IMG/VR virus record: IMGVR_UViG_3300023174_005299
Coordinates: 1-64,000 of that record
Strand: one strand, 5' to 3'
Source of the DNA: a virus
Length of the DNA stretch: 64,000 nt
Shown: piece after piece, positions 1,790 to 55,053 of the stretch
Numbering within the stretch: position 1 is the first letter of the stretch
Layout of the letters: every line of letters begins with the position of its first letter
Notes under the pieces: model-generated
Databases searched by the model: none
What the model was told of the DNA's origin: nothing
What the model saw: the letters and a program-made list of their open reading frames with translations, nothing else
Position numbers and translations under genes: made by a program

Positions 1790-2083
1790 TTACCAACACT
1801 CAACGTCGGTGATGTCCATCTTAATTGATTGCTTGGGATCAAACTCAATGGTGACTGTGGGACCAATACCATTGGTGCTTACTTCACTCCACACTATTTG
1901 ATCCACGCTGTCATACATTTCAAAAACTTCTTGCAGTCGTTCAAACTGCTTACGTGTGATTATTATGGAAGTTGGTCGATTGCGCATCTTGATAAATTCC
2001 TCGTATTTTTCTTGTGTGCCCACACTGTAGCCACCGTCGCCTGAGTGGAGATCGGCACCTACTTGAATATTTTGGTTCATCAA
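1790..2083 (-). CDS. hypothetical protein
   Basis: 97-aa ORF with ATGA-type overlap to queE. Confidence 0.55.
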   Translation of the reverse strand: MMNQNIQVGADLHSGDGGYSVGTQEKYEEFIKMRNRPTSIIITRKQFERLQEVFEMYDSVDQIVWSEVSTNGIGPTVTIEFDPKQSIKMDITDVECW

Positions 2084-2964
2084 GTGCCCCAGGCATTGCG
2101 CCAGATGTCAACTTGTAATCTTGGACTGTAGCGATAACCACGACGCATGGCCAGTGTGGCCACCTGTTGTGTATTGAGATTGTACACACCTGGCACTCCG
2201 CCAATGGGCATTAAATACACAGGTCCGCCAAACCCGGCACTGCGAAACTCTTCCACAGCACGATCCACATCACGCAAGTCCTGCTCATTACCCACAACAA
2301 ACTTCAAGTAAGTCATGCCCACGCTTTCATACTCTTTGATGATATTGGGATTGATGGCCTTGTCCCACGACTCGCCGGAACACGGAAGCTTGGGACTGAC
2401 ACTGAATGTCAACCGGTCATAATCTCTACCATGACGAGTAAATTCCTCAAACAAGTACTCACGAACATTGTCATACAAGGGTTGAGTACCATTGGTTTCA
2501 AATGTTAGATTTCGCAGTCCACGATCTCGACACTGTTGAATCATTTCTGGGTACAGTTGTTGATACGCCAAAAACGGTTCACCACCTGTGATCACCAAGT
2601 GTACATCATCAAGTCCATTGACCCCACTCCATTGTTGTCCCGGGATCATGTCATGCATCTTGTTCACAATTTCTTCAACTGTGCCCTGCTCATTGAACTT
2701 TTTAAATTCTGGATAGATACTTGCATAAGTGTCACAGCCCGAAGTCACCAATGGCAATTCTTCAAACTTATTGTACTTGTCAATGTTACGAATGATCTCA
2801 ACGACTTCAGGATTGGGACCGTTGATGACTTCGTCGCGGTCTCGTCCAAATTTCTTGCAACGAAAGTTACAGCCAAAGGTACGAAAGAAAACGCTGGGTA
2901 CTCCGGCCCAACGTCCTTCACCTTGCAAACTATAAAAGATTTCTGTATAGGTAATTTTTTCCAT
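2080..2964 (-). CDS. queE: 7-carboxy-7-deazaguanine synthase (radical SAM)
   Basis: EIFYSLQGEG, RTFGCNFRC...CDT (long insertion in the Cys motif), ITGGEP, ETNGT, VSPK, SPRLQVDIW; folE and queD nearby. Confidence 0.92.
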   Translation of the reverse strand: MEKITYTEIFYSLQGEGRWAGVPSVFFRTFGCNFRCKKFGRDRDEVINGPNPEVVEIIRNIDKYNKFEELPLVTSGCDTYASIYPEFKKFNEQGTVEEIVNKMHDMIPGQQWSGVNGLDDVHLVITGGEPFLAYQQLYPEMIQQCRDRGLRNLTFETNGTQPLYDNVREYLFEEFTRHGRDYDRLTFSVSPKLPCSGESWDKAINPNIIKEYESVGMTYLKFVVGNEQDLRDVDRAVEEFRSAGFGGPVYLMPIGGVPGVYNLNTQQVATLAMRRGYRYSPRLQVDIWRNAWGT

Positions 2965-2999: not shown

Positions 3000-3776
3000 T
3001 TAAATTTTTCTTGCTTTTACCAAAAGGTGCCATCCTAGATACTCTCTAACAGCTTCCCTCATGACTTCTGGCATGGCAGCAAACCAGGGTTCTAATTCAA
3101 AATGTCCTTGTTTGTATTCAGGCACATTGTACATAAAACAATGATCCTGTCTCACTCGTTCAACGTTGAACAACCCATCTAAGAGTCCAACTATGTCTTC
3201 TTTGGTGTAGGCGTCGGCATATGGACATTCGGCTTGTGCTTCAAATTGGTCTAGACCTTTTTGTATCATGGCATACTTCCAACTGTTCCTTGCATATACC
3301 ATGAATCTAAATTCGCCGTCAACGTCCAAGACTTCATGCAAATTCTTAATATGCTCTCGCATGCCCGGGAAATGATGCAACACACCATAACTGTATACAA
3401 GATCAAATTTTCCTATGTGTGATAACAGATCTTTGTCAGTGACACTGCCTTCGTGAAATTCTCCAGCAAGATCCAACAACTCGAATCGATCTCGACAGAT
3501 TTGAATGCTCTGGGAACTTATGTCTATACCAGTGTAATGTGCGCCATGGCGAGCAAATTGCTCAGCATCAGTGCCAATGCCACATCCAATCTCCAACACA
3601 CGTTTGCCCCTCCACAAATGGAACTTGGCAAAATCCAGCACATGGGGTTCAGCACGATATCTTTTTTCTGTGACTTGTTGAAAATACAATTCAGTACCCA
3701 CAGGCTCGTTGCTGTGGTTGATGTTGCAAGGTTGTCGATTCCAGTAGTCAACTATGTTTTGATCTAATGTTGTCAT
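3000..3776 (-). CDS. class I SAM-dependent methyltransferase
   Basis: VLEIGCGIG motif I, GIDIS, FDLVYSYGVLHH. Confidence 0.9.
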   Translation of the reverse strand: MTTLDQNIVDYWNRQPCNINHSNEPVGTELYFQQVTEKRYRAEPHVLDFAKFHLWRGKRVLEIGCGIGTDAEQFARHGAHYTGIDISSQSIQICRDRFELLDLAGEFHEGSVTDKDLLSHIGKFDLVYSYGVLHHFPGMREHIKNLHEVLDVDGEFRFMVYARNSWKYAMIQKGLDQFEAQAECPYADAYTKEDIVGLLDGLFNVERVRQDHCFMYNVPEYKQGHFELEPWFAAMPEVMREAVREYLGWHLLVKARKI

Positions 3777-4591
3777 AAAAAGTTTTCTTTGTTTATCCGT
3801 TTAATCTGTTGATTGGGGTCATATTCGGGGCTGACCATTTTTTCCCAGGGATCTTGTGTGCCATTTAAAATATTTGTAAACCAAGAAATGTCTTCGCCTT
3901 GGCTTTTAAGATATTCTGCTATTTTTCGGCAATCACCAAGCCGATGAGTGCGCCAAGATATGAAATTAAAATCCTTGGGATGACCTGGATTACCTTCTAG
4001 CATGGGCCGATTGTTAAAAGTCTCATCGTTGTTGTTGCCAGTCAAATCAAATCTATCATGTGTTACATCAACATCAAGGTTGACAACAATGTCAACCATG
4101 TAACTAATTTGACTAATCCAAGCGTCGGATAACTGGTGAGCACTCAAATATCCAAACAGTTCAAACCATTTGCGTGGGACAATTGGAAAAACAGCATAGG
4201 GGTGGCAATTGTGTGTGGGTATACGCAATGTTCGGAATTTGCCAGTGTGTTCGGTGATTTTTAAATCCCAATCTTTGGTGTGAATAATTGCATCATCATT
4301 CCAAAACATAATCCAATCTCCAGTGGCATGTTTGGCCAATGAATTTACATATTCATTTAGTCTTTCATACCCAACTGGTTCATAGATCAGTGCTGTGAAT
4401 GGCATGCTGTGTTGCTCAATCACAGGTTGAATATTGGTTGAAAAGTACTCAATGCTGTCAGTGTCATCGTTGTCAAACGCCAGCAGTAATTGCACTTTTG
4501 TTATGTCATTGGCTGTGTCAATTAAACTTTTGACACTGGCTTCTAACGAAGCAGTCCTGCCACGAGTGGGTAATAGTACAGAAATATTCAT
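3773..4591 (-). CDS. glycosyltransferase, GT-A/GT2 family
   Basis: ISVLLPTRGR N-terminus, DNDD, GDWIMFWNDD DxD-like motif. Confidence 0.85.
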   Translation of the reverse strand: MNISVLLPTRGRTASLEASVKSLIDTANDITKVQLLLAFDNDDTDSIEYFSTNIQPVIEQHSMPFTALIYEPVGYERLNEYVNSLAKHATGDWIMFWNDDAIIHTKDWDLKITEHTGKFRTLRIPTHNCHPYAVFPIVPRKWFELFGYLSAHQLSDAWISQISYMVDIVVNLDVDVTHDRFDLTGNNNDETFNNRPMLEGNPGHPKDFNFISWRTHRLGDCRKIAEYLKSQGEDISWFTNILNGTQDPWEKMVSPEYDPNQQIKRINKENFL

Positions 4592-4602
4592 TTTAATATA
4601 TG

Positions 4603-5088
4603 TTAGATATCAAACTCGCCATCTTCTCTATGACCACTACGGCCTGCCATGTTACTATCAGTCTCACGCACCTCTACTCTACAGCACCATACACGTTTGG
4701 CTTCTTCACTACCGCAGTTGGGTAAAAAGATTGTGTTGATATATTCATATAAGAAATCAGCAAGACCTTCACATCCTGTACGCTCAACTTCTGTGATCTT
4801 TGCCAGCTTTAAACGGCCTAGTTCCAGTAGGTGTTCACGCATGGGATCATCTTGTGCAACTAATAGAGTATGGTCAAACCATTCTTCTAATTTATCTTTG
4901 AGTGGGCGTAAGCCACCGAAGTCAGTTACCCAGTTACGGGCATCTAATGTATCAGCTTCAAACTCAAAGTGAAAACTCATGGCATAGCCATGAATCAAAT
5001 TACAATGACTGTCGGCACGCCATTGACGGTATGCCACAGGACCTGTTTGTCTGTATGTCTTTGTTGAAAAGAACTTTTTATTTGCCAT
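4603..5088 (-). CDS. queD: 6-carboxy-5,6,7,8-tetrahydropterin synthase
   Basis: CNLIHGY, DFGGL, FDHTLL, E-x-LA, VEVRET motifs of the PTPS/QueD T-fold. Confidence 0.9.
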   Translation of the reverse strand: MANKKFFSTKTYRQTGPVAYRQWRADSHCNLIHGYAMSFHFEFEADTLDARNWVTDFGGLRPLKDKLEEWFDHTLLVAQDDPMREHLLELGRLKLAKITEVERTGCEGLADFLYEYINTIFLPNCGSEEAKRVWCCRVEVRETDSNMAGRSGHREDGEFDI

Positions 5089-5829: not shown

Positions 5830-6222
5830 TTATGCTGGGATTCGATAACTAGTTTTCTTGTAGTTGGCCTGCCCAACTATCACGCCCCGAACCCCACCGA
5901 CTGGGTCTGCACAATCACCGATGCGTCTTGGGATAAGATGCACATGTGGATACATCACTGTTTGACCAGCGGCTTCACCCGAGTTGATGCCCACATTAAA
6001 GGCATCACATTCACCAGCATCCACCATTCGTTGACCTTCAAACAACGCTGACGCCAGGGCTTCTCGAATCACGCTAGGCGTGTTGTATTTGGGTACAAAC
6101 AAAAGATGGCCCTTGGTCACTGGATAACGATCGCTGTATACAACAATGTGGAAATCTTCCCAAACTTTTTGATCCCACGGAGCCACACCTTGCTGTTGTG
6201 CAGTTTCTAGATCCACTATCAT
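5830..6222 (-). CDS. HIT family hydrolase
   Basis: YPVTKGHLLFVP, NVGINSGEAAGQTVMYPHVHLIPR; start could alternatively be 6249. Confidence 0.92.
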   Translation of the reverse strand: MIVDLETAQQQGVAPWDQKVWEDFHIVVYSDRYPVTKGHLLFVPKYNTPSVIREALASALFEGQRMVDAGECDAFNVGINSGEAAGQTVMYPHVHLIPRRIGDCADPVGGVRGVIVGQANYKKTSYRIPA

Positions 6223-6223
6223 G

Positions 6224-6907
6224 TCAGTTTCTCTTGCAGTTGTTGACAATGTTCATGAACTCCACACGCACTGATGGATCATTCTTAAAAACACCACCAA
6301 GCTTGCTGGTAACTGTTGAACTACCTACATCTTCGACTCCGCGGCTCTTGACACAATAGTGTTGTGCATCTACCACAACTGCAATATCGTCGGTTTCTAG
6401 AATATACTGTAGAGCATAGTACACTTGTTCGGTCAGGCGTTCTTGAATCTGAGGTCTCTTGCTAAAGTACTCAACCACTCGATTGATCTTTGACAAGCCT
6501 AGTACTTTTTGTTTGGGAATGTAGCCCACTGTGGCCACTCCATCAATGACAACAAAGTGGTGCTCGCAGTTGCTTTGCACGTTGACGTTGCGCTCAACCA
6601 CCATCTCATCGTACTTCATCTTGTTGTCAACTGTGGTACATTTGGGAAATGCTTCGTAGTCTAGTCCCCAAAAGATTTCATTCACATACATCTTGGCCAC
6701 ACGCTTGGGCGTGTCCATCAAGCTGTCATCGCTCAAGTCCAGGCCCAACACTTCCATGATGTGTTTAAAATCACGCTCAATCAAGTCAATCTTGTCTTTG
6801 CGATCAACAGCATGTTGAAATGTGGGAGTTTCTACTCCACACTTGACCAAGTGTTGGTGTACACGTTGACCCAGATCGGGGTCACATTTAGTTTTATTAT
6901 AACTCAT
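6224..6907 (-). CDS. folE: GTP cyclohydrolase I
   Basis: TPKRVAKMY, CEHH, GLSKINR, QIQERLT, HYCVKSRG; RBS AAGGAAGG before ATG 6907. Confidence 0.97.
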   Translation of the reverse strand: MSYNKTKCDPDLGQRVHQHLVKCGVETPTFQHAVDRKDKIDLIERDFKHIMEVLGLDLSDDSLMDTPKRVAKMYVNEIFWGLDYEAFPKCTTVDNKMKYDEMVVERNVNVQSNCEHHFVVIDGVATVGYIPKQKVLGLSKINRVVEYFSKRPQIQERLTEQVYYALQYILETDDIAVVVDAQHYCVKSRGVEDVGSSTVTSKLGGVFKNDPSVRVEFMNIVNNCKRN

Positions 6908-6943
6908 TTTGTTTTCCTTCCTTACGCGGATTAATTTGAAAAG

Positions 6944-6965
6944 TTTGCTACCTTTGTGTAGCAAA
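6944..6965 (-). promoter_or_regulatory. 8-bp perfect hairpin in the folE leader
   Basis: TTTGCTAC-N6-GTAGCAAA lying just downstream of a CTAAATA motif. Confidence 0.4.
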
Positions 6966-6999: not shown

Positions 7000-7965
7000 T
7001 TATGCAAGTTTTTTATTATACCAGGCCCAGGCATGAGTGATCATGTCAGCTAATGTGTATTCTGGTTGCCAATTGCCCACTTTGGCAAACAGCGAGCTGT
7101 CAGCACACAACTTTTCTGGGTCTCCAGTCCGACGGTCACCGTACACTACGTTGACATTTTTTCCAGTAATCTTTGATACAGTATCAATTACTTCTTGGTT
7201 ACTGTGCATTTTATTCACACCAAGATTGTAAATGCCACATGGTACAGATGGATCAATGGCAGCCACATGTGCCCGAGCAATATCTGCCACATGCACATAG
7301 TCTCTTAAACAAGTTCCATCAGCAGTGTTATAATCTTTACCATAGCAAGTGAACTCGGTGTTGTCTCTAACGCTTTCAAGCAATTTTGCAATAATGTGTG
7401 AGGCACCAGTTCCTTGTCCATGTCTTGCTTCGGGGTCTGCGCCGGCAGCATTGAAGTACCTAAACGTCACAAAGTCCAAGCCATAAGCTTGTGCATAGCT
7501 TTGTAAAAACCATTCAGTCATTAATTTACTTTGCCCATATGGACTTATCGGTGCAGTAGGGTCGACTTCAAAACAAGGAGTCATTACAGGATCACCATAT
7601 ACTGCGGCACTACTGCTGTAGATAACTCTGGGACGATTTTCAAGGAACAACAATGCATCCAGCATTGCCAAAGTTTTGGCTGTGTTGTTGTGGAAATATT
7701 CTCTGGGATTATCATGACTTGGTCCCACCAAGCTTGTGCCAGCACAATGTACCACTGCTAGCACTTCCTCCGAAGCCAACATCTCCAACGATCTATTGCT
7801 GGCAAAATCAGTTTGTACAAACTGTCCAACATATGTTTGTAGATGCTCAGGCAATGGTAGTAAGTCAATGCCCACTACTCTGTACCCTTGTGAGTGCAAC
7901 TGTATTGCAGTCTGTCCACCAATGTAACCGCTTACTCCGGTCACTATAATAATATTACGATTCAA
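7000..7965 (-). CDS. galE: UDP-glucose 4-epimerase (extended SDR)
   Basis: TGVSGYIG, SSSAAVYG, YGQSK, FRYFNAAGA, DGTCLRDYVHV. Confidence 0.92.
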   Translation of the reverse strand: MNRNIIIVTGVSGYIGGQTAIQLHSQGYRVVGIDLLPLPEHLQTYVGQFVQTDFASNRSLEMLASEEVLAVVHCAGTSLVGPSHDNPREYFHNNTAKTLAMLDALLFLENRPRVIYSSSAAVYGDPVMTPCFEVDPTAPISPYGQSKLMTEWFLQSYAQAYGLDFVTFRYFNAAGADPEARHGQGTGASHIIAKLLESVRDNTEFTCYGKDYNTADGTCLRDYVHVADIARAHVAAIDPSVPCGIYNLGVNKMHSNQEVIDTVSKITGKNVNVVYGDRRTGDPEKLCADSSLFAKVGNWQPEYTLADMITHAWAWYNKKLA

Positions 7966-8025
7966 TTTTTACCACCTAACATTTTTAACAAGATTTCACT
8001 ACCAATAAATTTGGTACAACTTTAA

Positions 8026-8583
8026 TCATTTGAAATTTTTACTATACCATACTTTGTGTAATTTATTTACGGCATCAACGTTAAGATTAATTTTTAAAAA
8101 ATAATTAATTCTATTAATAACAGAAGTTATGTCTTCAACAAACCATTCTGAAATAGAAATATTCATAATATTGTCTAGTGATTCATTAAAATAGTGCTGG
8201 TACATAAAAGGTTCATATAAAAATACTTGCTCGCCTTCAAAATAATCGCCGTTTTTAAAATAAACATATCCTAATTGTTTTCTTCTTTTGGATAGTAATT
8301 GGTGATCTTGTGAATTGTCGTTACAGATTATGATAAATTTTTTATTTTTTATATCTCGTATTTGATTTTGATAAGACATAATTTCACCAAAGTGTCCATG
8401 CAATACGTGTGTATTTTCTGGATCAGCCAATGCTGTTTCGATTTGGCTTGCTTGTAAATTTCTTCCTGGAGTTTGATGCACAGTTGGGTTGGTATACTGC
8501 AATTTAGAAATATCACTAACAAGTATATTTTTTAAATGATTACCTCCGGCAGCCGGAGGAAATGGTATTATAATAGTAGTCAC
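8026..8583 (-). CDS. hypothetical protein, possible P-loop/sulfotransferase-like
   Basis: N-terminal FPPAAGGNHL loop; very AT-rich. Confidence 0.4.
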   Translation of the reverse strand: MTTIIIPFPPAAGGNHLKNILVSDISKLQYTNPTVHQTPGRNLQASQIETALADPENTHVLHGHFGEIMSYQNQIRDIKNKKFIIICNDNSQDHQLLSKRRKQLGYVYFKNGDYFEGEQVFLYEPFMYQHYFNESLDNIMNISISEWFVEDITSVINRINYFLKINLNVDAVNKLHKVWYSKNFK

Positions 8584-9782
8584 TGTATAATTTTGTTGAC
8601 TTGATATTTTTCATGTGCGGCATGGTCGCGATAGCGATTGCCTGCGCGATTCCATTCTTCGCCTCGTCCTGTCATAATGTCAATTACACGATCAATGGTG
8701 CCATTATTCCAGTCTGAAATCAATCCCATGTTGTGATGCGGATCACGCAACAAATTTTGCATCTTGTGATAAGCATCATCTATGCTCCAGGGAACGTAGA
8801 GCCTATTGGGGTCATTTGCAAAAGTTTCAGGGAAACTGCGATAAGCAGGATATAGAACGTTGGCTCCAAGCGTGTCTGCTTCACTGACAGTGTTTGATAC
8901 CCAATCTTGGAGAGCACAATTAAACAACACACGAGTATTGTTAAGGTGAGCATAGTATTCGTTCTTGGTTATGTTGTCAAATATTTTGAGTTTGCCTTCT
9001 GCCTCCATGCGCCGAGCACGTTCAACATACTCTGGATTGTTGCTTCGCAAAGGACCACCACTGTATATTGCAAATTCACAAGGCTCGCTGGTAAGTTCGC
9101 CATACATTTCAATCAAGTCCATAAAGAAGCCAGGCTGCTTCTCTTGATCAAATCTTGCGGCAAATCCCACACGACGTGGACGCTGATCAAATGCCTTGAT
9201 GTTCTCTGCACCACCAATGCGTTCTAACACTTCTTCCTTGCCAAATGCTAGGCCACTAATATTGTATATAGGAGCACGCCATCCAGCAATGCGCATATGA
9301 GCAACCATCTCTTCGTTTGTGGCGAGAACTCCATCCACGAACTCATTAACCATTTGTTCGTAGAGTCCCATCCATTTTGCCATACCCCATACATGTACGA
9401 AGTCATCAGGATCAATGGACTGAGCAAGACAGCGCACATACACGCGAGGACGTTGATCAGCAGGAACCTGATCAAGGATGTAGGGTAAACTCTCAATGCC
9501 GGGTTGAAACATGTCTTCAAAGTAGATAACATCTTCACTGGTGACCTCTCCGTTCTTCATCATTTGAACCAAGTTCATCATCTGACTCATGCCAAAGTAA
9601 CTGCGCCCATGTGCATCCAACACTTGACCTACTGAGATAGCTTGACTATTGTCAATGGTAGTTCCAGGAACATACACAACGTCAAGACCTCTACGGTCAA
9701 ACACACGTCGGTTCCACTCTGTTAGTTGTAGTGTGTAGCGGGCTTCGTAGCTTTCCAAGCCCATGTAGTAGAGCTTTTTCAT
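8580..9782 (-). CDS. GT-B (GT4-like) glycosyltransferase
   Basis: FAARFDQEKQP, ALQDWVSNTVSEA, YPAYRSFPE resemble the GT-B donor-binding region; ATG 9782 overlaps the upstream stop. Confidence 0.75.
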   Translation of the reverse strand: MKKLYYMGLESYEARYTLQLTEWNRRVFDRRGLDVVYVPGTTIDNSQAISVGQVLDAHGRSYFGMSQMMNLVQMMKNGEVTSEDVIYFEDMFQPGIESLPYILDQVPADQRPRVYVRCLAQSIDPDDFVHVWGMAKWMGLYEQMVNEFVDGVLATNEEMVAHMRIAGWRAPIYNISGLAFGKEEVLERIGGAENIKAFDQRPRRVGFAARFDQEKQPGFFMDLIEMYGELTSEPCEFAIYSGGPLRSNNPEYVERARRMEAEGKLKIFDNITKNEYYAHLNNTRVLFNCALQDWVSNTVSEADTLGANVLYPAYRSFPETFANDPNRLYVPWSIDDAYHKMQNLLRDPHHNMGLISDWNNGTIDRVIDIMTGRGEEWNRAGNRYRDHAAHEKYQVNKIIQ

Positions 9783-10009
9783 TGTTGTACTCTTGGACGG
9801 AAAGTAGGTCGAGCGTCCTGGTCCCACATGTCTTTGACATTTTTTCCTTGGGTGTACTTATTAAATTGTTGGAACGCATAACTTTTCCAGTTGTACAACT
9901 CGGCTTCGTTGTACCGATATCCAAATCGTTGACAGAACTCTAAGAAGTTTTCAAGATCTTCAAAGATCTGAGTCACACGGGGATTAGTAGTAAATGTAAT
10001 TTTTCCCAT
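9779..10009 (-). CDS. hypothetical protein
   Basis: 76-aa ORF with RBS (AAGG), translationally coupled to the glycosyltransferase. Confidence 0.6.
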   Translation of the reverse strand: MGKITFTTNPRVTQIFEDLENFLEFCQRFGYRYNEAELYNWKSYAFQQFNKYTQGKNVKDMWDQDARPTFRPRVQQ

Positions 10010-10023
10010 TTTTATTACCTTGA

Positions 10024-10467
10024 TTAAATTTTAATTGATTGAGTAGGGCGGTGAGTGTTGTACTGAATTATGGCACCGTTCTCACCATCTTCGGCGACTT
10101 CAATCCAGACACTACGATCTGGATATCGACTTGCTATTTGTATATATAGGTCATCACTGATCATCTCACAACTTTTATAGTTGAGTTCCAGTATTCCACC
10201 GGCATAGAGATTCTCCAGCCAACGTTTAAACTGGATGAATTCAATATCGCGATCATTATGAAAAACATCGATCCAAACTCGGAAATGAAAGATGTGTCTA
10301 TGAGGCACCCCAAGGAAAGACACATCATATTCATCACCGGTCGCCAATAGTGGATCAGTGGCAGCGGCAGGGTACTTGTGGATTCCTTCTTTGCGGAAGG
10401 TGACCCAGATTTTTCTATCTGCATATTGCTTGCATCTTTCAATTTGTTCTCTTTGTTCTTGATTCAT
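10024..10467 (-). CDS. dpdL: QueD-like T-fold protein, putative 7-carboxy-7-deazaguanine decarboxylase
   Basis: LGVPHRHIF matches the LxxxHRHxF signature reported for DpdL; also DIEFI, SCEMI, EVAEDGENGA; sits among folE, queD, queE and a TGT-like gene. Confidence 0.75.
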   Translation of the reverse strand: MNQEQREQIERCKQYADRKIWVTFRKEGIHKYPAAATDPLLATGDEYDVSFLGVPHRHIFHFRVWIDVFHNDRDIEFIQFKRWLENLYAGGILELNYKSCEMISDDLYIQIASRYPDRSVWIEVAEDGENGAIIQYNTHRPTQSIKI

Positions 10468-10973
10468 AATTTTGAATCTCCCTTGTAGTCATCCCAAGAA
10501 GTAAAAGTGTCACGGCTCATCAAGCTGTGTAGACTATGGCACCAAACGCCGGGATTGGTGGCGTCAAAGTCTTTGTCATCTATTTTTAACATTGTATTAT
10601 AATTCCATAGCTTTGTATATGGTATGCTTACTCGAATCTGTGGAATAAAGTTGCGATGCTCGCACAAACCACCATCATGAAATTCTTCCACATGGGTGAT
10701 TGGGATATCCAAACTACACAAATAGCCCTTGCTTAAAAAAGGCTGGATCATACTTTCCCAACGTTGCCATTCAAGTGCGCTATCAGGGTGAAAGCTGTGA
10801 TTGGCACCAAAGAAGATATGTTCGATGCCATCTGGATTTTTGCTAAAATGGTATGCAATTTTGTCAACTGGTTGTATGCCAACCACAAACAAAGTAGTTT
10901 TACCAAATGCTGGAGTACGCTCTACTTCGACCCCGGTAAAAAAATCAACATTGTCATGACCTTCTCGATTCAT
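10464..10973 (-). CDS. hypothetical protein between the dpdA-like and dpdL-like genes
   Basis: 169-aa ORF overlapping both neighbours (coupled); HIFFGANHSF motif. Confidence 0.65.
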   Translation of the reverse strand: MNREGHDNVDFFTGVEVERTPAFGKTTLFVVGIQPVDKIAYHFSKNPDGIEHIFFGANHSFHPDSALEWQRWESMIQPFLSKGYLCSLDIPITHVEEFHDGGLCEHRNFIPQIRVSIPYTKLWNYNTMLKIDDKDFDATNPGVWCHSLHSLMSRDTFTSWDDYKGDSKL

Positions 10974-12493
10974 TATACACTATCCTCTAATGCTGTCAGT
11001 AGTTCTGGGTTTAAATCATCTTCGGAATCCAAAGGATTGTCAACGTCAAACAGGTTGTTAAACATGGTATTGGCATTCACTGCTCGCTTACCAGTATAGC
11101 CACGAGTACCAATCACTCGTTCCCATATATTAGCATGATCATCAATAATTTGCAAGCTCTTCTGGCGATCCTTGGCTGCAAACACACGATTAATTACACT
11201 ACGGAAATCATACCAACGATCAGTTGGGTGCAACAGCATATCTGGTCCTTGCCCAGAATCATACACTCGATTTGCACGTTGTACTGCTTCAAGGTGCATC
11301 CAAGCATTGTGTCCCATGAGCAAGGCATAAGAGAAACTGTCCCATGATGTTTTACCTTCCTTGCCAATCTTATTTAGATCACCAGGCTTGTAAATGCAGA
11401 TATCGGATATCTTTAATCTACTGCTTATGGGACTATCTTCAAACTTGTCATGGATTCCATCTTGGCGCACAGCATCTCCAAACAGTCTTGAATCAAGTGA
11501 ATACTTTTTGTCATCCGCAGTGGCACTCATTCTATAACTCCACTTGTCACGATTCTCAGTAACAATTGAATGATAGAGTTGTCCATTTGCTGTGGCCAAG
11601 AATGGACTTGCGCAATCAAAGCTGATGGTAAAATTGGCATTGTGATGATATCGCACAGCACGTTGAATGTCTGTGAGCAACACTGCCCACTCTAATTTAC
11701 TGGTGCCCAAGAAGTGCATCCAATCATGCAGACCTTTTTCCAGCAAACCATCATGCATGAGGTTTACAATTCTCTTTAGCACAAGGTGCACATCACACAT
11801 GTTCTGCCCGCCCATGCCCCACCCATCAAAGGGCCTTTGGTGTTTGGCGGGGTCGCAGTAGTCTTTCATTAGACCGTACCAATGATCAGCTTCACCGTGA
11901 TTTGATCCTTGCAACACATTGAGAATCTTGACATCGCCATGACGATTGTTGATCCAGTATTCGTTGTTGAACTTACTGGCATTCACTGCATCATCATAGC
12001 TGTGAATGCCACAGGCTGCGGCAGCTTCTTTGTTGAGGTATGTCCAAGTTGGAATGTCCATGGTGAGCCCATGGGTGGCAATACCACACTGCCATTCCAA
12101 CACAGCTCGGCGTTTTTTCTCTGCGGCCTTGTCTTTGGGATCTGCCCATTGTCCGGGCCAAACACCTTTGGCAATTTGGAAACCACCCGAGTCACACAGC
12201 AATGTTGTGCCTGGCTCTCGATTCCTGAGCATGTCTTCTTTGGGAACATGTTTGGTAAGGTCCAAGTCAGCATGACCGGCACTGTAAAGACTCCACTTGT
12301 AGGGAAACAAAGCTTTTTGAGAATTCAACCAGTTCAATTGTTCCATGTCTGTTATACCTGCCGGCATTCGAGACTTGGGGATGTATTCATTAGATCGCTG
12401 TTTGCCTATGTAGGTTGCATAGAAACCCGACACTGCTGGTAAAAACAAAGCGTAGTCTAATTGTTTGGCGGTTAAGTTGTCTTGTTCAGTCAT
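10973..12493 (-). CDS. dpdA: tRNA-guanine-transglycosylase-like protein (DpdA-like 7-deazaguanine insertion enzyme)
   Basis: DSGGFQ, MDIP, LNVLQG, GWGMGG, MHFLG, SFDCASP are the TGT TIM-barrel motifs; deazaguanine gene context. Confidence 0.75.
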   Translation of the reverse strand: MTEQDNLTAKQLDYALFLPAVSGFYATYIGKQRSNEYIPKSRMPAGITDMEQLNWLNSQKALFPYKWSLYSAGHADLDLTKHVPKEDMLRNREPGTTLLCDSGGFQIAKGVWPGQWADPKDKAAEKKRRAVLEWQCGIATHGLTMDIPTWTYLNKEAAAACGIHSYDDAVNASKFNNEYWINNRHGDVKILNVLQGSNHGEADHWYGLMKDYCDPAKHQRPFDGWGMGGQNMCDVHLVLKRIVNLMHDGLLEKGLHDWMHFLGTSKLEWAVLLTDIQRAVRYHHNANFTISFDCASPFLATANGQLYHSIVTENRDKWSYRMSATADDKKYSLDSRLFGDAVRQDGIHDKFEDSPISSRLKISDICIYKPGDLNKIGKEGKTSWDSFSYALLMGHNAWMHLEAVQRANRVYDSGQGPDMLLHPTDRWYDFRSVINRVFAAKDRQKSLQIIDDHANIWERVIGTRGYTGKRAVNANTMFNNLFDVDNPLDSEDDLNPELLTALEDSV

Positions 12494-12846: not shown

Positions 12847-13046
12847 TCTATTTTACCCCACTTAATTTTAAGCCATATTCGTTCATGAATATAGTAATCT
12901 ACACTTAGGAGAATATGCAGTGCTGTGGCAAAACCTGTAGCACTACTGATATCTCCTGTAAACAAATATGTCCATAAGATAGTAAACAACCATGCTGTCA
13001 CACGGTATGTCAACATCCTTACAACTGTTCGTTTTTTAGTTTCCAT
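12843..13046 (-). CDS. DUF2061-like small membrane protein
   Basis: ETKKRT...TYR...YYIHERIW...WG pattern. Confidence 0.7.
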   Translation of the reverse strand: METKKRTVVRMLTYRVTAWLFTILWTYLFTGDISSATGFATALHILLSVDYYIHERIWLKIKWGKIE

Positions 13047-13777
13047 TACTTGCTCTGTGCTGGCAATGTGTAGGTGTACACAGCAACACCAGAATTCACA
13101 ATAATCTGCATGGCACCCTCATCGCTGATTTTCATAATCTTGTCGCCATCCAGGTCCAGGATACTAATTACTTGTTTGACTGGCCAGCCCCAAGAGTGTT
13201 TCATAGAGCCAGTTATGCCGGATTCAAATACAAAGTCACCGGCATGGGTGCTGTGATCACCAAACGCAAACTTTAAATTGTTGTTGTCAACCCGTACTTT
13301 AAAGTTTGGTTGCTCACTGTTGGCCTGAGCCTGCATTTTTAATTTTGTGATACCACTGAGCTTGGGTTCAAATTCTATGTTCCAGTTAACTGGTCGCATC
13401 TTGGCAGTTTTTAATTGGTCAGACACAATCTCACTGCTCATGAATCTATAATCATTTTGAAAGTCCCCGCCAGCATTAGTAAAATGCAAGCCCACTGGAA
13501 CATCAACATCATTGCGATTTTGTTTAGTCACAGTGATATCAGCATTTTCGCGATACTCTTGAATGTTTAAAAGAATTTTTAATTTATCCAAATTGGGCAT
13601 ACCAAATGTACCCACAAAGTCTGATATTGGTTGCAAGAAGCTTGCTTGCAATACCACAGATTTGTCAGTGGCCAAGCCAGCAATCTCTGTCACTGTGTCA
13701 GTGCCAATGATTTTAACAAGGCCAATACAACCGAGGTCGTGTGTGTGTTCAACTAAGTCTAATAGATTATCTCTCAT
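13046..13777 (-). CDS. putative sliding clamp (T4 gp45-like)
   Basis: 243 aa, beta-rich, FGMPNLDKL...YTYTLP pattern, close to the DNA polymerase. Confidence 0.6.
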   Translation of the reverse strand: MRDNLLDLVEHTHDLGCIGLVKIIGTDTVTEIAGLATDKSVVLQASFLQPISDFVGTFGMPNLDKLKILLNIQEYRENADITVTKQNRNDVDVPVGLHFTNAGGDFQNDYRFMSSEIVSDQLKTAKMRPVNWNIEFEPKLSGITKLKMQAQANSEQPNFKVRVDNNNLKFAFGDHSTHAGDFVFESGITGSMKHSWGWPVKQVISILDLDGDKIMKISDEGAMQIIVNSGVAVYTYTLPAQSK

Positions 13778-13821: not shown

Positions 13822-14802
13822 TTATTTGCTATTATTACTGATTTTCAAGCTCTTGTCAACGATCTTGGCCAAAGCCTGACCGCCACGCAATGTACTCAAT
13901 GTTCCGGGTTTTTTAATCTCCAACCAGGTATTGCTGGCATCCAGATGCCGTTCAATTTCAACTTCGTAATTCAATGATTTAACAACTTTATGGACTTGCT
14001 GGGCAGGTGTGTAACACATGTAACTTCGTTCCACTAGTTCTACTCCGGCAGCGTTTTCACAGTTGTTGAATGTAAATGCAAATATGCCGCCGGGTTTGAG
14101 TTTTTGATACATTTCAGTTAGATACTGAGTCATTACTTCAATAGGTTTGTAATTAAAATAGTTATAGGCCAACACAAATCCAAATTGATGATCGGGAAGT
14201 TGGTGCAATATTGCTTGTGTGCCAGTTTCTTGTGTGCCAACTTCTTGAACCTGGTACATTCTCAATCTTTCCAGGTAATGTTGATTAAATTTGTCCTTGA
14301 TTGGATGAAACAATGCCAAGTCTTGATCAACAAGGTACAACGGATCAAGCCCCACTAGCATGTCAACCCAAGGCTCCAATCCTGGACGTAGAATCATTCC
14401 TGGGTGCCTCCAATCGCTGTATTTTTTTAGTCTCCCTGTGAGGAATTCTTCTGACTTAGATGACAACACCAGGCGCCGGTTGAGTAGGTATTCAACTGAG
14501 TCCTGGCTCTTACCTTCCAGGTATATACGATAACTGTCTTCCAAATATGTTGGTTGCAGTGTACCAACTTCTTTGATTAAATTGGATCTAAGATTTACTA
14601 TACTGTTATCAAATCTTTCAATGGCTTGACGCACCTGAGACAGGTTGAAATCAACTGCCTTGGTAAAGTTAGGATACTGTAGATCGTGTGTAGTGATTAA
14701 ATGATGCAGGGGTTCTAGTTCGCCAAACACAGCCTGACGGGCATTATGTTCCAACATAGAATCAATTAGATTTAGATATCTTACTATTGCACTGAGTTTC
14801 AT
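13822..14802 (-). CDS. methyltransferase-like protein
   Basis: C-terminal FGFVLAYNYFNY...LKPGGIFAF. Confidence 0.6.
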   Translation of the reverse strand: MKLSAIVRYLNLIDSMLEHNARQAVFGELEPLHHLITTHDLQYPNFTKAVDFNLSQVRQAIERFDNSIVNLRSNLIKEVGTLQPTYLEDSYRIYLEGKSQDSVEYLLNRRLVLSSKSEEFLTGRLKKYSDWRHPGMILRPGLEPWVDMLVGLDPLYLVDQDLALFHPIKDKFNQHYLERLRMYQVQEVGTQETGTQAILHQLPDHQFGFVLAYNYFNYKPIEVMTQYLTEMYQKLKPGGIFAFTFNNCENAAGVELVERSYMCYTPAQQVHKVVKSLNYEVEIERHLDASNTWLEIKKPGTLSTLRGGQALAKIVDKSLKISNNSK

Positions 14803-17459
14803 GAAAATTCAAATAAAGACTGTAAGGTGTTATCGGTATTGGTAGCTGACTCTAGACCCCAACCCAGCACCCCCAATAAATTGTCAACCTTGCCATCGAT
14901 CACAGTGGCTTCCATTTCACTGTCGTCAAATGGTAAATCTTTAAACCACTGTGGCAAATGCAATTCATCAGTGGGATAAGCAATTGATGTCCAACCCAAC
15001 GGGTTTGATTTTAACTTGCAAACAATCACTTTCATGCCATCAACCACCTGCATGCTGTAGTTATCGCTGTTCATGCGCCTTAAATTATTCCAGTTCATTG
15101 CGGCACGAACATGTCCAGGCATGTTGGCTTTGCCTAATCGAGTTTCTTCCGCGCCATACTTGGTCAAATTGTTGACACGTTTGGGTGAACCTTTTTCCCA
15201 ACCTGGGCGTTCTTTAAAGATATATTTGAATTCACGGATCTTTTCAATGATTGCATCTTTGCCGACCCCTTGCAGAACATCATTGAGGATGTCACTGAGA
15301 AATTCTTGAATCACCTTGGGCGTGTCACTGCGCTTCAAATCCAAGCCCATGGCCTTGACCTTGCCAGGCTTGCCTTCAACATCCAGGCGCTTGCCTTCTT
15401 TGTCAATGATCATCACAGCATAACGCTTTTTAGTAATGAACAGGCCTTTGCTGGCAACAATCTCTCGACCACCTTTGATGATGGATCCATTTTCTCTAGG
15501 ACAATGAAATGCTTGCTCCATGAATCCCGGAAAACTGGCATTAACTTGTTCAGCAATTGAATCATACAATTGGATACAAATTTCTTTTGACCACTCCATG
15601 CGACCTTCGTTGACTTCAGACTTGAGCACACCCCAGGCACTGAAATAACAACTATCAGTGTCGCCATAAATTATGGTTTCACCAGTGTGATCATATTTGC
15701 CAGTCACACATTCATTGACATAGGCATCCATGTGCTTGGCAATAGCACGACCTGTGAGTGTGGTACTCTGTCCAATACGCTTGTCAAAGAATCTGCAACC
15801 AGGATTAAGAATAGCGCCATACAGGCTGTTCAAGTTAATCTTCTTAACCAACTGACGTTTGTCCCAGTATTCTTCTTCGGCCTTAGTTGCACAAGCCTTG
15901 AGTTTGGCCTGCATTTCTTTACGTTCTGCATACCAACGTTTGAGCAAGCCTGGAATGATTCCTTCCTTGTCATAGGTGAAGATAGTACCGTTGGCTGACA
16001 GTATCCAAGGATGATTACTGTCAAAAATTATTTTCCAAATCTCTGCGGCACTGTGCACACTTTCATCACCGTCTTGCCAGTCAATGGTGATTTCCGTGCC
16101 ACGTTGTTGTTCCATCACAGCAGTGTATTCTAGGCTACCAAACAAACCCTCCCAGGCAGCCGCAAAACTCATGTTTTGTGACTGTCGGTCATGAATGTAT
16201 TTGTCGGTCATGACCGGTCTGAGTTGTCCAACAATTGTTTCGGGCCCCATGTTAAGAGCACGGATTGCTGACGGGTAGAGCGAGTTAATGTCAATGGAGC
16301 CAATGTATTCGTGAATCCCTTTTTTGGGATAAGCAACATAGGCACCTGCGGCTTGCGTATCATCATCTGTGAGTCTCTGTTGTCGGTTGGGAACTACTAA
16401 ACCACGTTCGTGGGCTTCATTGATAATTGCTTGTTCAGTAACTGCCACAGCACCCATGGTGGTTTGTAACAGCACTGTGTTTTCGTGTGCCAGGGTATTG
16501 GCCAAGTCCAAGAAACGCAGTTTCTTGTCAATGGCAGCTAGTCCATTTACGTCTTGCCGGTTGTACTCGATAAATGTTTTGAAATTTTGATTGTACAATT
16601 GATCAAGTGTGCCTTCAAACTTGGTTTTGCTGCCAAGGTCCTCATACTCAAGGATGGCATCTAAGCTATAACTATGGCGTTCTTCATATGTGTACTTGCG
16701 ATACAGTTGCATGTAGTCAAGATGTACACGCCCAATTAAATCATATGTTTGTTGCTCAGAACCAAATCGTTCAAACATGCGCGGCTTAGGCAGTTGATTT
16801 AGTAGACAAAATCGACGAGTGTCATCTTTGCTAAGGACTCGAATACATCTGTTGATGGTGTAGGGAATATCATAGCCCTCACTGTTCCAGCCACTGACCA
16901 CATCTGCATCTTCAATGAGATTTAAAAATGTGTCAATGAGTTCAGCCTCGGTTTCATACACAAAGGTGTTGGGGAATTCGGCAGCAATTTCCCTAGCAGT
17001 TTCTTGACTCATGTGCCGGGGCGGGACCACCACTGTTACTAATTGATCTAACCAATCCAAATACACTGATATGGCAGTGATGGGGTTGAATGGGTCATCG
17101 GGTCTGCTAAAACCACGCTCGGGATCAAAGTCTACTTCAATGTCAAAAAATGCTGTGTGCAGTTTTGGTCCGTCTTGACCTTTGTAGTTTTCTTCTAGGC
17201 ACCGAAAGATAGGATTGATATCACTCTCATACAATCGCTTGCTGGAGTGCATTTTGACTTCCTTGCGGAACTCTTTGTTGTTGCGTGTGCTGAAACGACT
17301 GACAGGTGTGCCATAGATGCTTTGAAACTTGCCTCTGGCATCGTCATAGTAAAAGATGTAGTTGGCAGGATACTCTCGGTATTGCCTTTCACCATCGCGG
17401 CGTTCCACAATGTGAATGCGATCGTGTTCACGATCAAAAAGTGCGTCAATATAACTCAT
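14799..17459 (-). CDS. DNA polymerase, family B
   Basis: Exonuclease FFDIEV, GWNSEGYDIPY, YNRQDV; polymerase DINSLYPS, KINLNSLYG, YGDTDS, KKRY. Confidence 0.97.
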   Translation of the reverse strand: MSYIDALFDREHDRIHIVERRDGERQYREYPANYIFYYDDARGKFQSIYGTPVSRFSTRNNKEFRKEVKMHSSKRLYESDINPIFRCLEENYKGQDGPKLHTAFFDIEVDFDPERGFSRPDDPFNPITAISVYLDWLDQLVTVVVPPRHMSQETAREIAAEFPNTFVYETEAELIDTFLNLIEDADVVSGWNSEGYDIPYTINRCIRVLSKDDTRRFCLLNQLPKPRMFERFGSEQQTYDLIGRVHLDYMQLYRKYTYEERHSYSLDAILEYEDLGSKTKFEGTLDQLYNQNFKTFIEYNRQDVNGLAAIDKKLRFLDLANTLAHENTVLLQTTMGAVAVTEQAIINEAHERGLVVPNRQQRLTDDDTQAAGAYVAYPKKGIHEYIGSIDINSLYPSAIRALNMGPETIVGQLRPVMTDKYIHDRQSQNMSFAAAWEGLFGSLEYTAVMEQQRGTEITIDWQDGDESVHSAAEIWKIIFDSNHPWILSANGTIFTYDKEGIIPGLLKRWYAERKEMQAKLKACATKAEEEYWDKRQLVKKINLNSLYGAILNPGCRFFDKRIGQSTTLTGRAIAKHMDAYVNECVTGKYDHTGETIIYGDTDSCYFSAWGVLKSEVNEGRMEWSKEICIQLYDSIAEQVNASFPGFMEQAFHCPRENGSIIKGGREIVASKGLFITKKRYAVMIIDKEGKRLDVEGKPGKVKAMGLDLKRSDTPKVIQEFLSDILNDVLQGVGKDAIIEKIREFKYIFKERPGWEKGSPKRVNNLTKYGAEETRLGKANMPGHVRAAMNWNNLRRMNSDNYSMQVVDGMKVIVCKLKSNPLGWTSIAYPTDELHLPQWFKDLPFDDSEMEATVIDGKVDNLLGVLGWGLESATNTDNTLQSLFEFS

Positions 17460-20260: not shown

Positions 20261-20281
20261 GTTTGTAATATAGTTGTTAAT

Positions 20282-20372
20282 GCTCACTTCAGACTACAAA
20301 GGTAGCGAGTCTTTTTCGTCTAGGCAGCAGCCGCCCACACACTCGGTAACGAGTACCGGTCCTAAGGTGTGT
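20282..20372 (-). ncRNA. candidate structured RNA upstream of ahcY
   Basis: GC-rich; ACACAC/GTGTGT stem enclosing CGGTA/TACCG, GGGC/GCCT hairpin, AGAC/GTCT stem, CTCGCT/AGTGAG pseudoknot potential. Confidence 0.45.
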
Positions 20373-38934: not shown

Positions 38935-38989
38935 TTTGCTCCTTGTGCTTGTCATGTATAGTAACATGATTAATTGAATGCCACAATAT

Positions 38990-48595: not shown

Positions 48596-48604
48596 GCTAG
48601 GTCC

Positions 48605-49423: not shown

Positions 49424-49461
49424 TGAATGTAATCCATAATATGGGTAGTAAATACCCATTC

Positions 49462-55051: not shown

Positions 55052-55053
55052 GG

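Follow-up and report, generated by a model that had tools for sequence, protein, structure and literature searches.

The alpha- and beta-glucosyltransferases of phage T4 are GT-B enzymes that glucosylate 5-hydroxymethylcytosine in DNA. The DpdL-type dDG system of Cellulophaga phage phiST consists of FolE, QueD, QueE, DpdL and DpdA3 (Nucleic Acids Res 2023, PMC10516641), and in DpdL the signature LxxxHRHxF replaces the CxxxHGH of QueD (Cui et al., 2023). Decarboxylation by DpdL is a published proposal whose reconstitution failed, and the words 'glycosyl' and 'sugar' are absent from the main text of that paper (PMC10516641). In huimycin, the glycosyltransferase HuiG attaches GlcNAc to the 2-amino group of a free 7-deazapurine base, with methylation by the methyltransferase HuiC, and in dapiramicin a methylated disaccharide occupies this position (PMC7439116; bioRxiv 10.64898/2026.04.15.718813).

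We analysed a window of 64,000 nucleotides from a giant uncultured phage (IMG/VR record IMGVR_UViG_3300023174_005299, positions 1 to 64,000), for which an initial annotation had described a GT-B glycosyltransferase (GT) and GalE inside a co-oriented, partly translationally coupled deazaguanine operon. Open reading frames, Pfam, PHROG and NCBIfam profiles, Foldseek and tblastn led to the minus-strand order TGT-fold DpdA-like protein, u169, DpdL, u76, GT-B enzyme, insert, GalE and FolE. Every gene named before was found on this strand at or adjoining its assigned place, including the GT2-family and methyltransferase genes said to lie between queD and queE:

2080..2964, minus strand: QueE-like protein (phrog_2076, 7.6e-49; Pfam Radical_SAM and NCBIfam QueE matches all under their cut-offs)
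3000..3776, minus strand: class I SAM methyltransferase, clade-specific (Methyltransf_12/25/11, ~1e-17; phrog_22502, 4e-59)
3773..4591, minus strand: GT2-family glycosyltransferase, clade-specific (PF00535, 26.9 bits against a cut-off of 23.3; phrog_14945, 2.4e-13)
4603..5088, minus strand: QueD-like 6-carboxytetrahydropterin synthase (PF01242, 7.9e-16; phrog_2389, 1e-41)
5830..6249, minus strand: HIT-family protein, conserved in the clade (PF01230, 1.5e-9; 48 of 80 close loci)
6224..6964, minus strand: FolE, GTP cyclohydrolase I (PF01227, 1.7e-61; NF006824, 322 bits against a cut-off of 202)
7000..7965, minus strand: GalE, UDP-glucose 4-epimerase (TIGR01179, 285.8 bits against a cut-off of 262.3; Pfam Epimerase, 1.1e-49)
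8026..8583, minus strand: variable insert ORF, 185 aa, outside the conserved module
8580..9782, minus strand: predicted GT-B (GT4-like) glycosyltransferase, 400 aa (AlphaFold/Foldseek, Pfam matches of the family, gene linkage)
9779..10009, minus strand: small conserved ORF u76, 76 aa
10024..10467, minus strand: DpdL, proposed 7-carboxy-7-deazaguanine decarboxylase, T-fold (motif and tblastn)
10464..10973, minus strand: conserved protein u169 of unassigned function, 169 aa, module member (72 of 80 close loci)
10973..12493, minus strand: putative TGT-fold, DpdA-like base-exchange enzyme, 506 aa, 'A506 type' (predicted fold, motifs, hhalign)

Partial translational coupling is borne out at several junctions, which overlap by 1-4 nt: 1 nt between the A506-type gene and u169, and 4 nt at u169/DpdL, u76/GT (stop over start), GT/insert and GT2/methyltransferase, with gaps of 14 nt at DpdL/u76, 60 nt at insert/GalE and 35 nt at GalE/FolE. 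The order PolB-u326-u243-TGT-u169-DpdL-u76-GT-GalE-FolE-HIT-QueD-GT2-(methyltransferase)-QueE is common to the 80 loci of a close-clade scan, and because u76 directly precedes the GT in 79 of them and GalE directly follows it in 76, this order is not a matter of chance. The u76 protein, which also occurs in 22 of 164 diverse loci, has no Pfam or PHROG family. The ORF at 8026-8583, matching no Pfam, PHROG or NCBIfam family, was found in only 2 of the 80 close relatives and is therefore rightly called an insert. GalE co-occurs with the GT in 79/80 close and 38/164 diverse loci. The GT2 gene (48/80 close, 6/164 diverse) and the methyltransferase gene (16/80 and 3/164), whose close-locus counts may fall short where a locus ends before the gene, are clade-specific add-ons.

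The GT reading frame extends to 9827, but the ATG at 9782 was taken as its start since this fits the 400 aa of most homologues (about 100 of the 120 listed). The AlphaFold model (pLDDT 95.7, pTM 0.93) consists of two Rossmann-like domains with a cleft between them, as in the GT-B fold, and Foldseek led to GT4-type GT-B enzymes, with BshA (3e-12), MshA, PimA and glycogen synthase (PDB 5D00, 3C4Q, 2GEJ, 2BIS) sharing this fold at a probability of 1.00 and TM scores of 0.56-0.71. The window's protein itself matches no Pfam family at E 0.01; among 115 diverse aligned members of its family, PF00534 (Glycos_transf_1) was matched by 71 and PF13692 by 46, and the family profile found WlaC (4.3e-4) and GlgM (4.2e-3) among PDB sequences. 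R210 and K215 are invariant and E301 is nearly invariant in the C-terminal (donor) domain of these 115 sequences, and they may correspond to the donor-binding basic pair and glutamate of GT4 enzymes. Model fold, structural neighbours and PF00534 matches thus agree with the earlier GT-B assignment, and the product of 8580-9782 is, judged from its predicted structure, a nucleotide-sugar glycosyltransferase of GT-B fold that resembles GT4. It differs from the GT4 enzymes in sequence (9-14% identity among the 34 structural alignments listed), in an invariant N-terminal set of its own (R15, Q67, D90, D127, W137) and in belonging to a family almost confined to phages: four matches, all on short MAG contigs, were obtained in prokaryotes (one genome each of 185,579 species), and the family forms 768 clusters at 50% identity. 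It is also acidic (median pI 5.8; 5.2 for the window's protein), which counts against a GT acting on DNA, though an acidic median (6.1) was also obtained for the TGT-like family.

The A506-type protein has no Pfam, PHROG or NCBIfam match. Its label as dpdA-like is supported by an AlphaFold model (pLDDT 88.6) for which all 50 Foldseek matches listed are tRNA-guanine transglycosylases (TGT) at ~1e-6 (E from 7e-7), pointing to the TIM-barrel fold of this superfamily. Across 44 homologues D101, S102, G103, G104 and Q106 of the DSGGFQ motif are invariant and F105 is nearly so, as are, without exception, D293 and P297 of FDCASP; the DSGG(F/Y)Q and FDC motifs, which hold the catalytic aspartates of this superfamily, are presumably the counterparts of the Zymomonas TGT motifs with Asp102 and Asp280. 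Comparison with the DpdA type of phages BUDD and ACP17 by hhalign gave 98.6% (E 1.4e-15). A homologue 34% identical occurs in PA5oct, a phage with the GT module and a modified G of unsolved base identity in its DNA (PMC12191111), an indirect hint that the A506 type may act on DNA and not on tRNA. Assignment to the DpdA3 subfamily was rejected: the 259-aa DpdA3 of phiST (CGPG_00065) has no detectable similarity to the 506-aa protein, jackhmmer from DpdA3 gave no match in the diverse loci, the 13 records found by tblastn with A506 include no Cellulophaga, and the A4 profile found nothing in the phiST genome though it found Phosso.

The neighbouring u169 is homologous to ACP17 gp122 (phmmer 1.1e-8) and is matched by a second group of GT-adjacent proteins (hhalign 97.6%); Pfam, PDB sequences and the Atlas gave no match. 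In DpdL, LGVPHRHIF fits the published signature, whose L, H, H and F residues do not vary among 12 DpdL sequences, and tblastn led to matches in 28 phage records, with 56% identity to ACP17 (1e-39) and, where CGPG_00067 lies, 36% to phiST (7e-9). FolE, QueD, QueE and the DpdA-like protein are all present in the window together with DpdL. QueC (PF06508) was not found in any of five related genomes, two of them complete (347 and 353 kb), with a positive control in 13 of 14 genomes; the absence rests on these five relatives, the window's own contig being only 21% complete. A ThyA-type hydroxymethylase (PF00303) was likewise found in none of the five, which leaves no other obvious acceptor for a sugar.

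A GT without linkage to dpd genes in relatives had been named initially as a refutation, but many phage lineages show this linkage. In 164 diverse IMG/VR loci, which come from three scans other than the close-clade one, the GT was accompanied by DpdL (128), FolE (116), QueE (102), an A506-type TGT (72), QueD (63) or a BUDD-type TGT (18), with all these partner genes on the strand of the GT. It adjoins DpdL or a TGT-like gene in 110 and lies within two genes of one in 140 of the 164, both counts including the candidate TGT-like family c6. Conversely, 75 of 79 loci of a DpdL-centred scan contain the GT, and the remaining four end 1-645 nt past DpdL. As the loci are inter-related and some contigs were sampled twice, these counts do not represent independent events. 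Among 13 cultured DpdL phages the GT was present beside dpd genes in seven, BUCT-ZZ01, BUDD, X1, ACP17 (gp124), PA5oct (EST35_0317), Phosso and BCSR5, and in none of the other six, which include phiST. The linkage spans PolB-type and PolA-type phages, two verified TGT-like families (in PolA-type loci the candidate c6 family stands in their place) and differing gene orders, and the genes sit among replication genes, adjoining DNA polymerase. Hundreds of other phages pair the deazaguanine gene set with the same GT family. No DpdL was seen in 36 of the 164 loci, among them a clade with full flanks and the order QueD-QueE-FolE-phosphoribosyltransferase-PolB-GT-TGT (e.g. L158, L237, L238), and therefore the GT is not strictly dependent on the product of DpdL.

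From the linkage of the GT to dpd genes and its co-occurrence with GalE, the sugar-decorated deazapurine proposed initially is still the best reading, and we consider a glycosylated 7-deazaguanine in DNA somewhat more probable than all else; that deazaguanine is the acceptor, as well as the sugar-bearing atom, the identity of the sugar and the order of steps, we infer. FolE, QueD and QueE would convert GTP into 7-carboxy-7-deazaguanine, from which DpdL would strip the carboxyl group to give 7-deazaguanine (as proposed in PMC10516641), and the TGT-fold protein at 10973-12493 would exchange this base for guanine in DNA. The GT would add a hexose to deazaguanine, drawing on a pool of UDP-glucose and UDP-galactose set by the phage GalE, and in this clade a second sugar and a methyl group may come from the GT2-family enzyme and the class I methyltransferase, respectively. 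Virion DNA would thereby end up with a glycosylated 7-deazaguanine that shields it from host nucleases. Whether the free base or the DNA would be glycosylated is nearly balanced, with a slight lean towards the free base, as hinted at by the distribution of the two large TGT-like subfamilies, which occur in 6 of the 7 cultured phages with the GT and in 0 of the 6 DpdL phages that lack it, few lineages in all. Plain 7-deazaguanine offers no obvious hydroxyl group for a sugar, which would need an N-, O6- or C-glycosidic link; candidate positions are N2, the one used in huimycin, C7 with a C-glycosidic bond, and O6. A link at N2 or O6 would disturb base pairing, a point that counts against such a base. 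As phiST makes plain dDG without a GT, the core pathway can run without this enzyme, whose family would, under the favoured reading and with the same narrow preference, supplement QueC-less 7-deazaguanine DNA-modification modules. No published description of a glycosylated 7-deazaguanine DNA base was found in the literature; if the reading is true, phage DNA may carry a sugar-bearing purine not yet described.

An alternative that we regard as unlikely is that the GT helps to make or deliver deazaguanine, for example by way of an intermediate that is glycosylated only transiently or by acting at the nucleotide level with a phosphoribosyltransferase, leaving plain dDG or dCDG as the virion base. 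Such a phosphoribosyltransferase occurs in 38/164 GT loci and in BUCT-ZZ01 and PA5oct, but was not found in either complete related genome, and GalE, which adjoins the GT in all but four of the 80 close loci, suggests bulk sugar use instead of a catalytic carrier. We know of no GT-B enzyme that serves as a mere transient carrier in base biosynthesis, which also counts against this role. In its favour, plain dDG was reported for phiST, the sole DpdL phage with measured DNA (PMC10516641), and ACP17 gp124 (the GT) and gp122 (the u169 family) fall between two genes treated by Cui et al.; reconstitution also failed for the GT-less phiST, however, so that it does not implicate the GT.

More doubtful still is a free small molecule as product, either a huimycin- or dapiramicin-like 7-deazapurine or a pterin glycoside of cyanobacterial type, with a GT that never touches DNA. 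Pterin synthesis, too, begins with FolE and a PTPS-like enzyme, the closest structural neighbours listed are GT4 enzymes acting on small molecules, a Synechococcus UDP-glucose:tetrahydrobiopterin glucosyltransferase (5ZE7) appears at Foldseek rank 27 (4e-10), and the acidic GT family would suit such a substrate; QueE, however, has no role in pterin glycosides. The huimycin cluster as reported likewise comprises FolE, QueD, QueE, a GT and a methyltransferase (PMC7439116), but according to a 2026 survey metabolite clusters are without base-insertion machinery (bioRxiv 10.64898/2026.04.15.718813), whereas at least 88/164 diverse loci and 67/80 close ones have a base-exchange gene of TGT fold together with the GT. 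The placement among replication genes beside DNA polymerase and the modified G in the DNA of the module-bearing PA5oct (PMC12191111) also argue against a free metabolite. That the GT has an unrelated target (a phage or host protein, LPS, teichoic acid or a hydroxymethylated pyrimidine) and shares only an early-gene neighbourhood with dpd genes is very improbable: GT4 enzymes such as PimA, TarM and WbaZ commonly build cell-envelope glycans and the missing Pfam match leaves specificity without a clue, but the linkage persists across phage types, TGT-like families and gene orders with direct adjacency in most diverse loci, bacterial genomes hardly ever encode the family, and the five relatives are without a ThyA-type hydroxymethylase.

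A GT acting on 7-deazaguanine in or for DNA would resemble the T4 glucosyltransferases as a phage-encoded enzyme of GT-B fold with a UDP-sugar donor, its gene linked to those of a pathway for replacing a canonical base of DNA, with escape from restriction as the expected role. Unlike in T4, the partner base would be a purine analogue without a hydroxymethyl group, and no ThyA-type hydroxymethylase accompanies it in the relatives. The T4 analogy drawn initially is weak, as the nearest structural neighbours listed are GT4 enzymes acting on small molecules and the 34 Foldseek matches listed from ranks 1-49 include neither of the T4 enzymes; a T4-type DNA glucosyltransferase was rejected on these neighbours and on the absence of PF00303 from all five related genomes. 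With phiST the window shares FolE, QueD, QueE and DpdL with the same signature motif, the lack of QueC (in the complete related genomes), a TGT-superfamily enzyme beside DpdL with a small gene of unassigned function between them, and a nearby MazG-like gene (61-438), but the phiST genome has no member of the GT family and its cluster no GalE, GT2 or methyltransferase. The huimycin and dapiramicin clusters are actinomycete, proceed via preQ0 with QueC present and are without a nucleic-acid transglycosylase, whereas the phage module lacks QueC and has DpdL and a TGT-fold enzyme. In both, a sugar goes on a 7-deazaguanine-derived base, a likeness to the phage GT that is a chemical precedent only; the arrangement of FolE, QueD and QueE genes beside a glycosyltransferase and a SAM methyltransferase is that reported for huimycin, and the methylated disaccharide of dapiramicin mirrors the GT, GT2 and methyltransferase of the window (PMC7439116; bioRxiv 10.64898/2026.04.15.718813).

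Every gene in the first 20 kb of the window lies on the minus strand. In the direction of transcription, the order is:

14799-17459, minus: family B DNA polymerase (family search)
13822-14802 and 13046-13777, minus: two conserved proteins of unknown function, preceding two small ORFs
between the 13046-13777 gene and the 506-aa gene, minus: the two small ORFs
10973-12493, minus: 506-aa DpdA-like protein with tRNA-guanine transglycosylase (TGT) fold (motifs and fold)
10464-10973, minus: u169, a 169-aa protein of unknown function
10024-10467, minus: DpdL, 147 aa, proposed 7-carboxy-7-deazaguanine decarboxylase (signature motif and homology)
9779-10009, minus: u76, a 76-aa ORF
8580-9782, minus: GT, a 400-aa GT-B glycosyltransferase (family profile and fold)
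8026-8583, minus: 185-aa insert ORF without family
7000-7965, minus: GalE (285.8 bits, passing the NCBI equivalog cut-off of 262.3)
6224-6964, minus: FolE
between FolE and QueD, minus: HIT protein, then a 218-aa protein of unknown function
4603-5088, minus: QueD
3773-4591, minus: GT2 glycosyltransferase
3000-3776, minus: class I methyltransferase
2080-2964, minus: QueE-like radical SAM enzyme
3' of the QueE-like gene, minus: SAM synthetase

The ORFs and family assignments reproduce the gene order given in the initial annotation, and overlaps of 1-4 nt at five junctions bear out its description of the operon as partly translationally coupled. The insert ORF has a 4-nt overlap with the GT stop and was found in just 2 of 80 closely related loci, indicating a recent insertion into the operon. 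A SAM-recycling set surrounds the modification genes, with SAM synthetase (679-1872), S-adenosylhomocysteine hydrolase (18980-20287), two further radical SAM proteins (20616-21713 and 63212-63826) and a MazG-like (PRA-PH) pyrophosphatase (61-438). Elsewhere in the window, host-like metabolic genes (45347-49459 and 53631-58106) include a fatty acid desaturase, an Asp/Glu racemase, a sodium:dicarboxylate symporter, SBP_bac_3 and TctC solute-binding proteins, an APS-kinase-like kinase, a sulfotransferase and a glutamine amidotransferase. Further phage genes specify a ferritin-like protein (25272-25736), an ATP-dependent protease of 772 aa (36649-38967; phrog_4871, 2.9e-240) and a DnaJ homologue (38990-39769).

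The 147-aa protein carries LGVPHRHIF, which fits the DpdL signature LxxxHRHxF as given by Cui et al. (2023; PMC10516641), and shares 56% identity with its ACP17 counterpart and 36% with CGPG_00067 of phiST. In the 506-aa protein, five of the six residues of the DSGGFQ motif are invariant and F105 is nearly so; D293 and P297 of the FDCASP motif are fully invariant. Its model (pLDDT 88.6) retrieved tRNA-guanine transglycosylases as all 50 Foldseek matches listed, and the protein is homologous to the DpdA type of about 420 aa in BUDD, ACP17 and BUCT-ZZ01 (hhalign 98.6%), whereas DpdA3 of phiST (259 aa) has no detectable similarity to it. As the family profile gave no match among PDB sequences, the TGT assignment rests on fold and motifs; single-query searches of PDB sequences with this protein or the GT gave chance-level matches only. 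A predicted complex of the two scored 0.00, which speaks neither for nor against binding, and both families are acidic, so that overall charge was discarded as a clue to DNA binding. The window GT alone matched no Pfam, PHROG or NCBIfam model. An HMMER scan of 1.84 billion representatives placed it in a family of 768 clusters at 50% identity; at the 90% level, the clusters scored as homologues number at least 7,987. Glycos_transf_1 was matched by 71 of the 115 members aligned. Structurally, its AlphaFold model (pLDDT 95.7) matches GT-B enzymes of the GT4 type, among them BshA, MshA, PimA and glycogen synthase.

For u169, nothing usable was obtained from the Atlas, a profile search against PDB or Pfam on 24 members, and a paralogy with DpdL was rejected (hhalign 0.1%). 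The family, whose window copy lies between the TGT-like gene and DpdL, recurs in the module: it includes gp122 of ACP17 (locus L249, 6330-6728), and 12 more GT-adjacent proteins match it (hhalign 97.6%). A protein family of about 300 aa, c6, is encoded right after the GT in 52 loci of PolA-type phages (L089-L122, L142-L151, L165-L171; for example L097, 11145-12134). It was suspected as a DpdA because an N-terminal DSG[GA] motif is present in all 30 members checked; D13, S14, G15, D177 and S178 are invariant in a 20-sequence alignment. From its motif, c6 may be a further DpdA-like family, but comparison with both TGT-like families (hhalign 0.5% and 4.0%), Pfam and the PDB profile gave no support. 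Two other clusters, c8 and c25, likewise showed no similarity to TGT by hhalign and were rejected. In several phages the same gene cluster includes a second transferase, more distant and of GT1 type (about 450 aa), which often adjoins GalE (L182, L187, L203-L207, L235 and others); the BUCT-ZZ01 copy (L001, 12301-13644) lies between DpdA and FolE.

The initial annotation had proposed a sugar-decorated deazapurine or other hypermodified base, a reading that would fall if the GT of relatives were not linked to dpd genes; the linkage persists in all three samples of loci. Among 80 IMG/VR loci with 79-94% GT identity, u76 directly precedes the GT in 79 and GalE follows it in 76, and DpdL (77), u169 (72), FolE (68) and the TGT-like gene (67) are found at frequencies whose shortfalls come mostly from loci ending early. 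Three further scans begun at distant branches of the GT tree gave 164 diverse loci (at least three contigs sampled twice), spanning PolB-type and PolA-type phages with differing gene orders. These contain DpdL (128/164), FolE (116/164), QueE (102/164), QueD (63/164), the 506-aa TGT type (72/164), the BUDD type (18/164), GalE (38/164) and a phosphoribosyltransferase (38/164), all on the strand of the GT, and u169 in 17. In 110 of the 164 the direct neighbour of the GT is DpdL or a TGT-like gene, and in 140 such a gene is at most two genes away, counts that include c6, whose TGT kinship is that of a candidate. Conversely, a scan centred on DpdL found the GT in 75 of 79 new loci, almost all of the GT-positive, 506-aa type and several on contigs previously sampled; the other four end 1-645 nt after DpdL. 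An IMG/VR scan started from the PA5oct homologue as a single protein gave no matching pattern. Across 185,579 prokaryote species, each represented by a single genome, GT relatives were confined to four short MAG contigs. Taken together, the three sets of loci and the near absence in prokaryotes indicate that the link between GT and deazaguanine genes is real, old and nearly exclusive. One clade (L158, L221, L224-L234, L237, L238, L243) combines the GT with a 400-aa TGT-like gene, QueD, QueE, FolE and a phosphoribosyltransferase, with DpdL undetected; this clade may carry carboxy-deazaguanine in place of deazaguanine.

Among cultured phages, the GT lies beside dpd genes in BUCT-ZZ01, BUDD, X1, ACP17 (gp124, between DpdA and DpdL), PA5oct (EST35_0317), Phosso and BCSR5, and is missing throughout the genomes of phiST, RHph_I1_18, Bakedbeans, Ahp1, D479 and MA9V-3. 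With positive controls run, the two large TGT-like subfamilies were found in six of the seven GT-positive and none of the six GT-negative phages, which hints, across few lineages, that transglycosylase and GT are matched. The DNA of phiST contains plain 7-deazaguanine, as described where DpdL and DpdA3 were defined (Cui et al., 2023; PMC10516641), so DpdL can work without the GT. A GT rarely found away from deazaguanine genes and a DpdL able to act without it together form the pattern to be expected of an optional step late in the pathway. In the Vibrio phage Bakedbeans, DpdL forms the C-terminal part of an annotated 383-aa protein (gp176; L252, 7212-8363) and may be fused to an N-terminal domain without assigned function.

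Giant phages make up the clade of the window: related contigs of 346,856 and 352,754 bp (those of L009 and L059) both bear direct terminal repeats and have a completeness rating of 100%, against 21% for the 72,511-bp source contig of the window. QueC was absent from all five related genomes (two complete, three partial), with a positive control in 13 of 14 genomes, so the pathway would stop at 7-carboxy-7-deazaguanine and DpdL. A ThyA-type enzyme was likewise absent from these five, leaving the GT without a hydroxymethylpyrimidine acceptor. Among the five, including the window's 21%-complete contig, a phosphoribosyltransferase occurred in one and in neither complete genome; a nucleotide-level, pre-replicative route through such an enzyme is thus not obligatory in this clade and was rejected as a general mechanism.

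From these observations we propose a putative pathway, which we hold to be just about probable. FolE, QueD, QueE and DpdL would yield 7-deazaguanine, the TGT-fold enzyme would place it in DNA, and the GT would add a hexose from the UDP-Glc/UDP-Gal pool set by GalE; further extension of the sugar in this clade would fall to GT2 and the methyltransferase. We lean slightly towards attachment of the sugar before base insertion, because the structural kin of the GT act on small molecules, because the TGT subfamilies seem matched to the GT, and because of the precedent of huimycin. For huimycin and dapiramicin, a glycosyltransferase encoded alongside a methyltransferase is described as glycosylating the free 7-deazapurine at its 2-amino group (PMC7439116; bioRxiv 10.64898/2026.04.15.718813). 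Against a glycosylated deazaguanine stand the retention of the GT in the clade lacking DpdL, the acidic nature of its family and the fact that 7-deazaguanine has no hydroxyl. A GT that acts as a helper, with sugar-free final DNA, we consider unlikely. A free metabolite as the product of the module, for which huimycin is again the model, is more doubtful still, the operon encoding a TGT-fold enzyme of the DpdA type. An acceptor unrelated to deazaguanine is very improbable, given the nearly exclusive linkage and the missing ThyA-type enzyme.

Extending the glycosylated-deazaguanine pathway to the phages themselves, we tentatively suggest, with more doubt than conviction, that a glycosylated 7-deazaguanine (possibly with a methylated disaccharide in this clade) takes the place of guanine in the DNA of these very abundant uncultured giant phages (complete relatives 347-353 kb) and of cultured ones such as PA5oct, ACP17, BUCT-ZZ01 and Phosso. 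The sugar-bearing base would be made free and then inserted by a new enlarged DpdA subfamily evolved to accept it. The module occurs in seven cultured phages, one with modified G in its DNA: PA5oct DNA resists five restriction enzymes, and a modified G of open identity was deduced in a 2025 preprint (PMC12191111). DpdL and DpdA of phiST and of ACP17 are reported to have yielded no 7-deazaguanine in E. coli (PMC10516641), and involvement of the GT may explain the failed rebuilding of the ACP17 pathway from two genes alone. The main text of that paper contains neither 'glycosyl' nor 'sugar'. In the literature searched, with most subscription journals and supplements outside its scope and the gene tables of Cui et al. 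(2023) possibly naming the GT, no paper on glycosylated 7-deazaguanine in DNA was found; the core pathway is already known, and that literature describes neither the dedicated GT family nor its GalE partner nor the enlarged TGT-like subfamily. If true, the proposal would bear on restriction and CRISPR evasion, on type IV and END-type nucleases sensing modified G, on enzyme tools and on sequencing, as both nanopore signal and polymerases would be affected. To our knowledge, the known sugar-bearing DNA bases are all pyrimidines (glucosyl- and arabinosyl-hydroxymethylcytosine, base J and glycosylated 5-hydroxycytosine), and all eight published 7-deazaguanine DNA bases that we know of carry small groups only. 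A sugar-bearing deazapurine would add a chemically new class to the DNA bases, and natural DNA would have its first glycosylated purine analogue.
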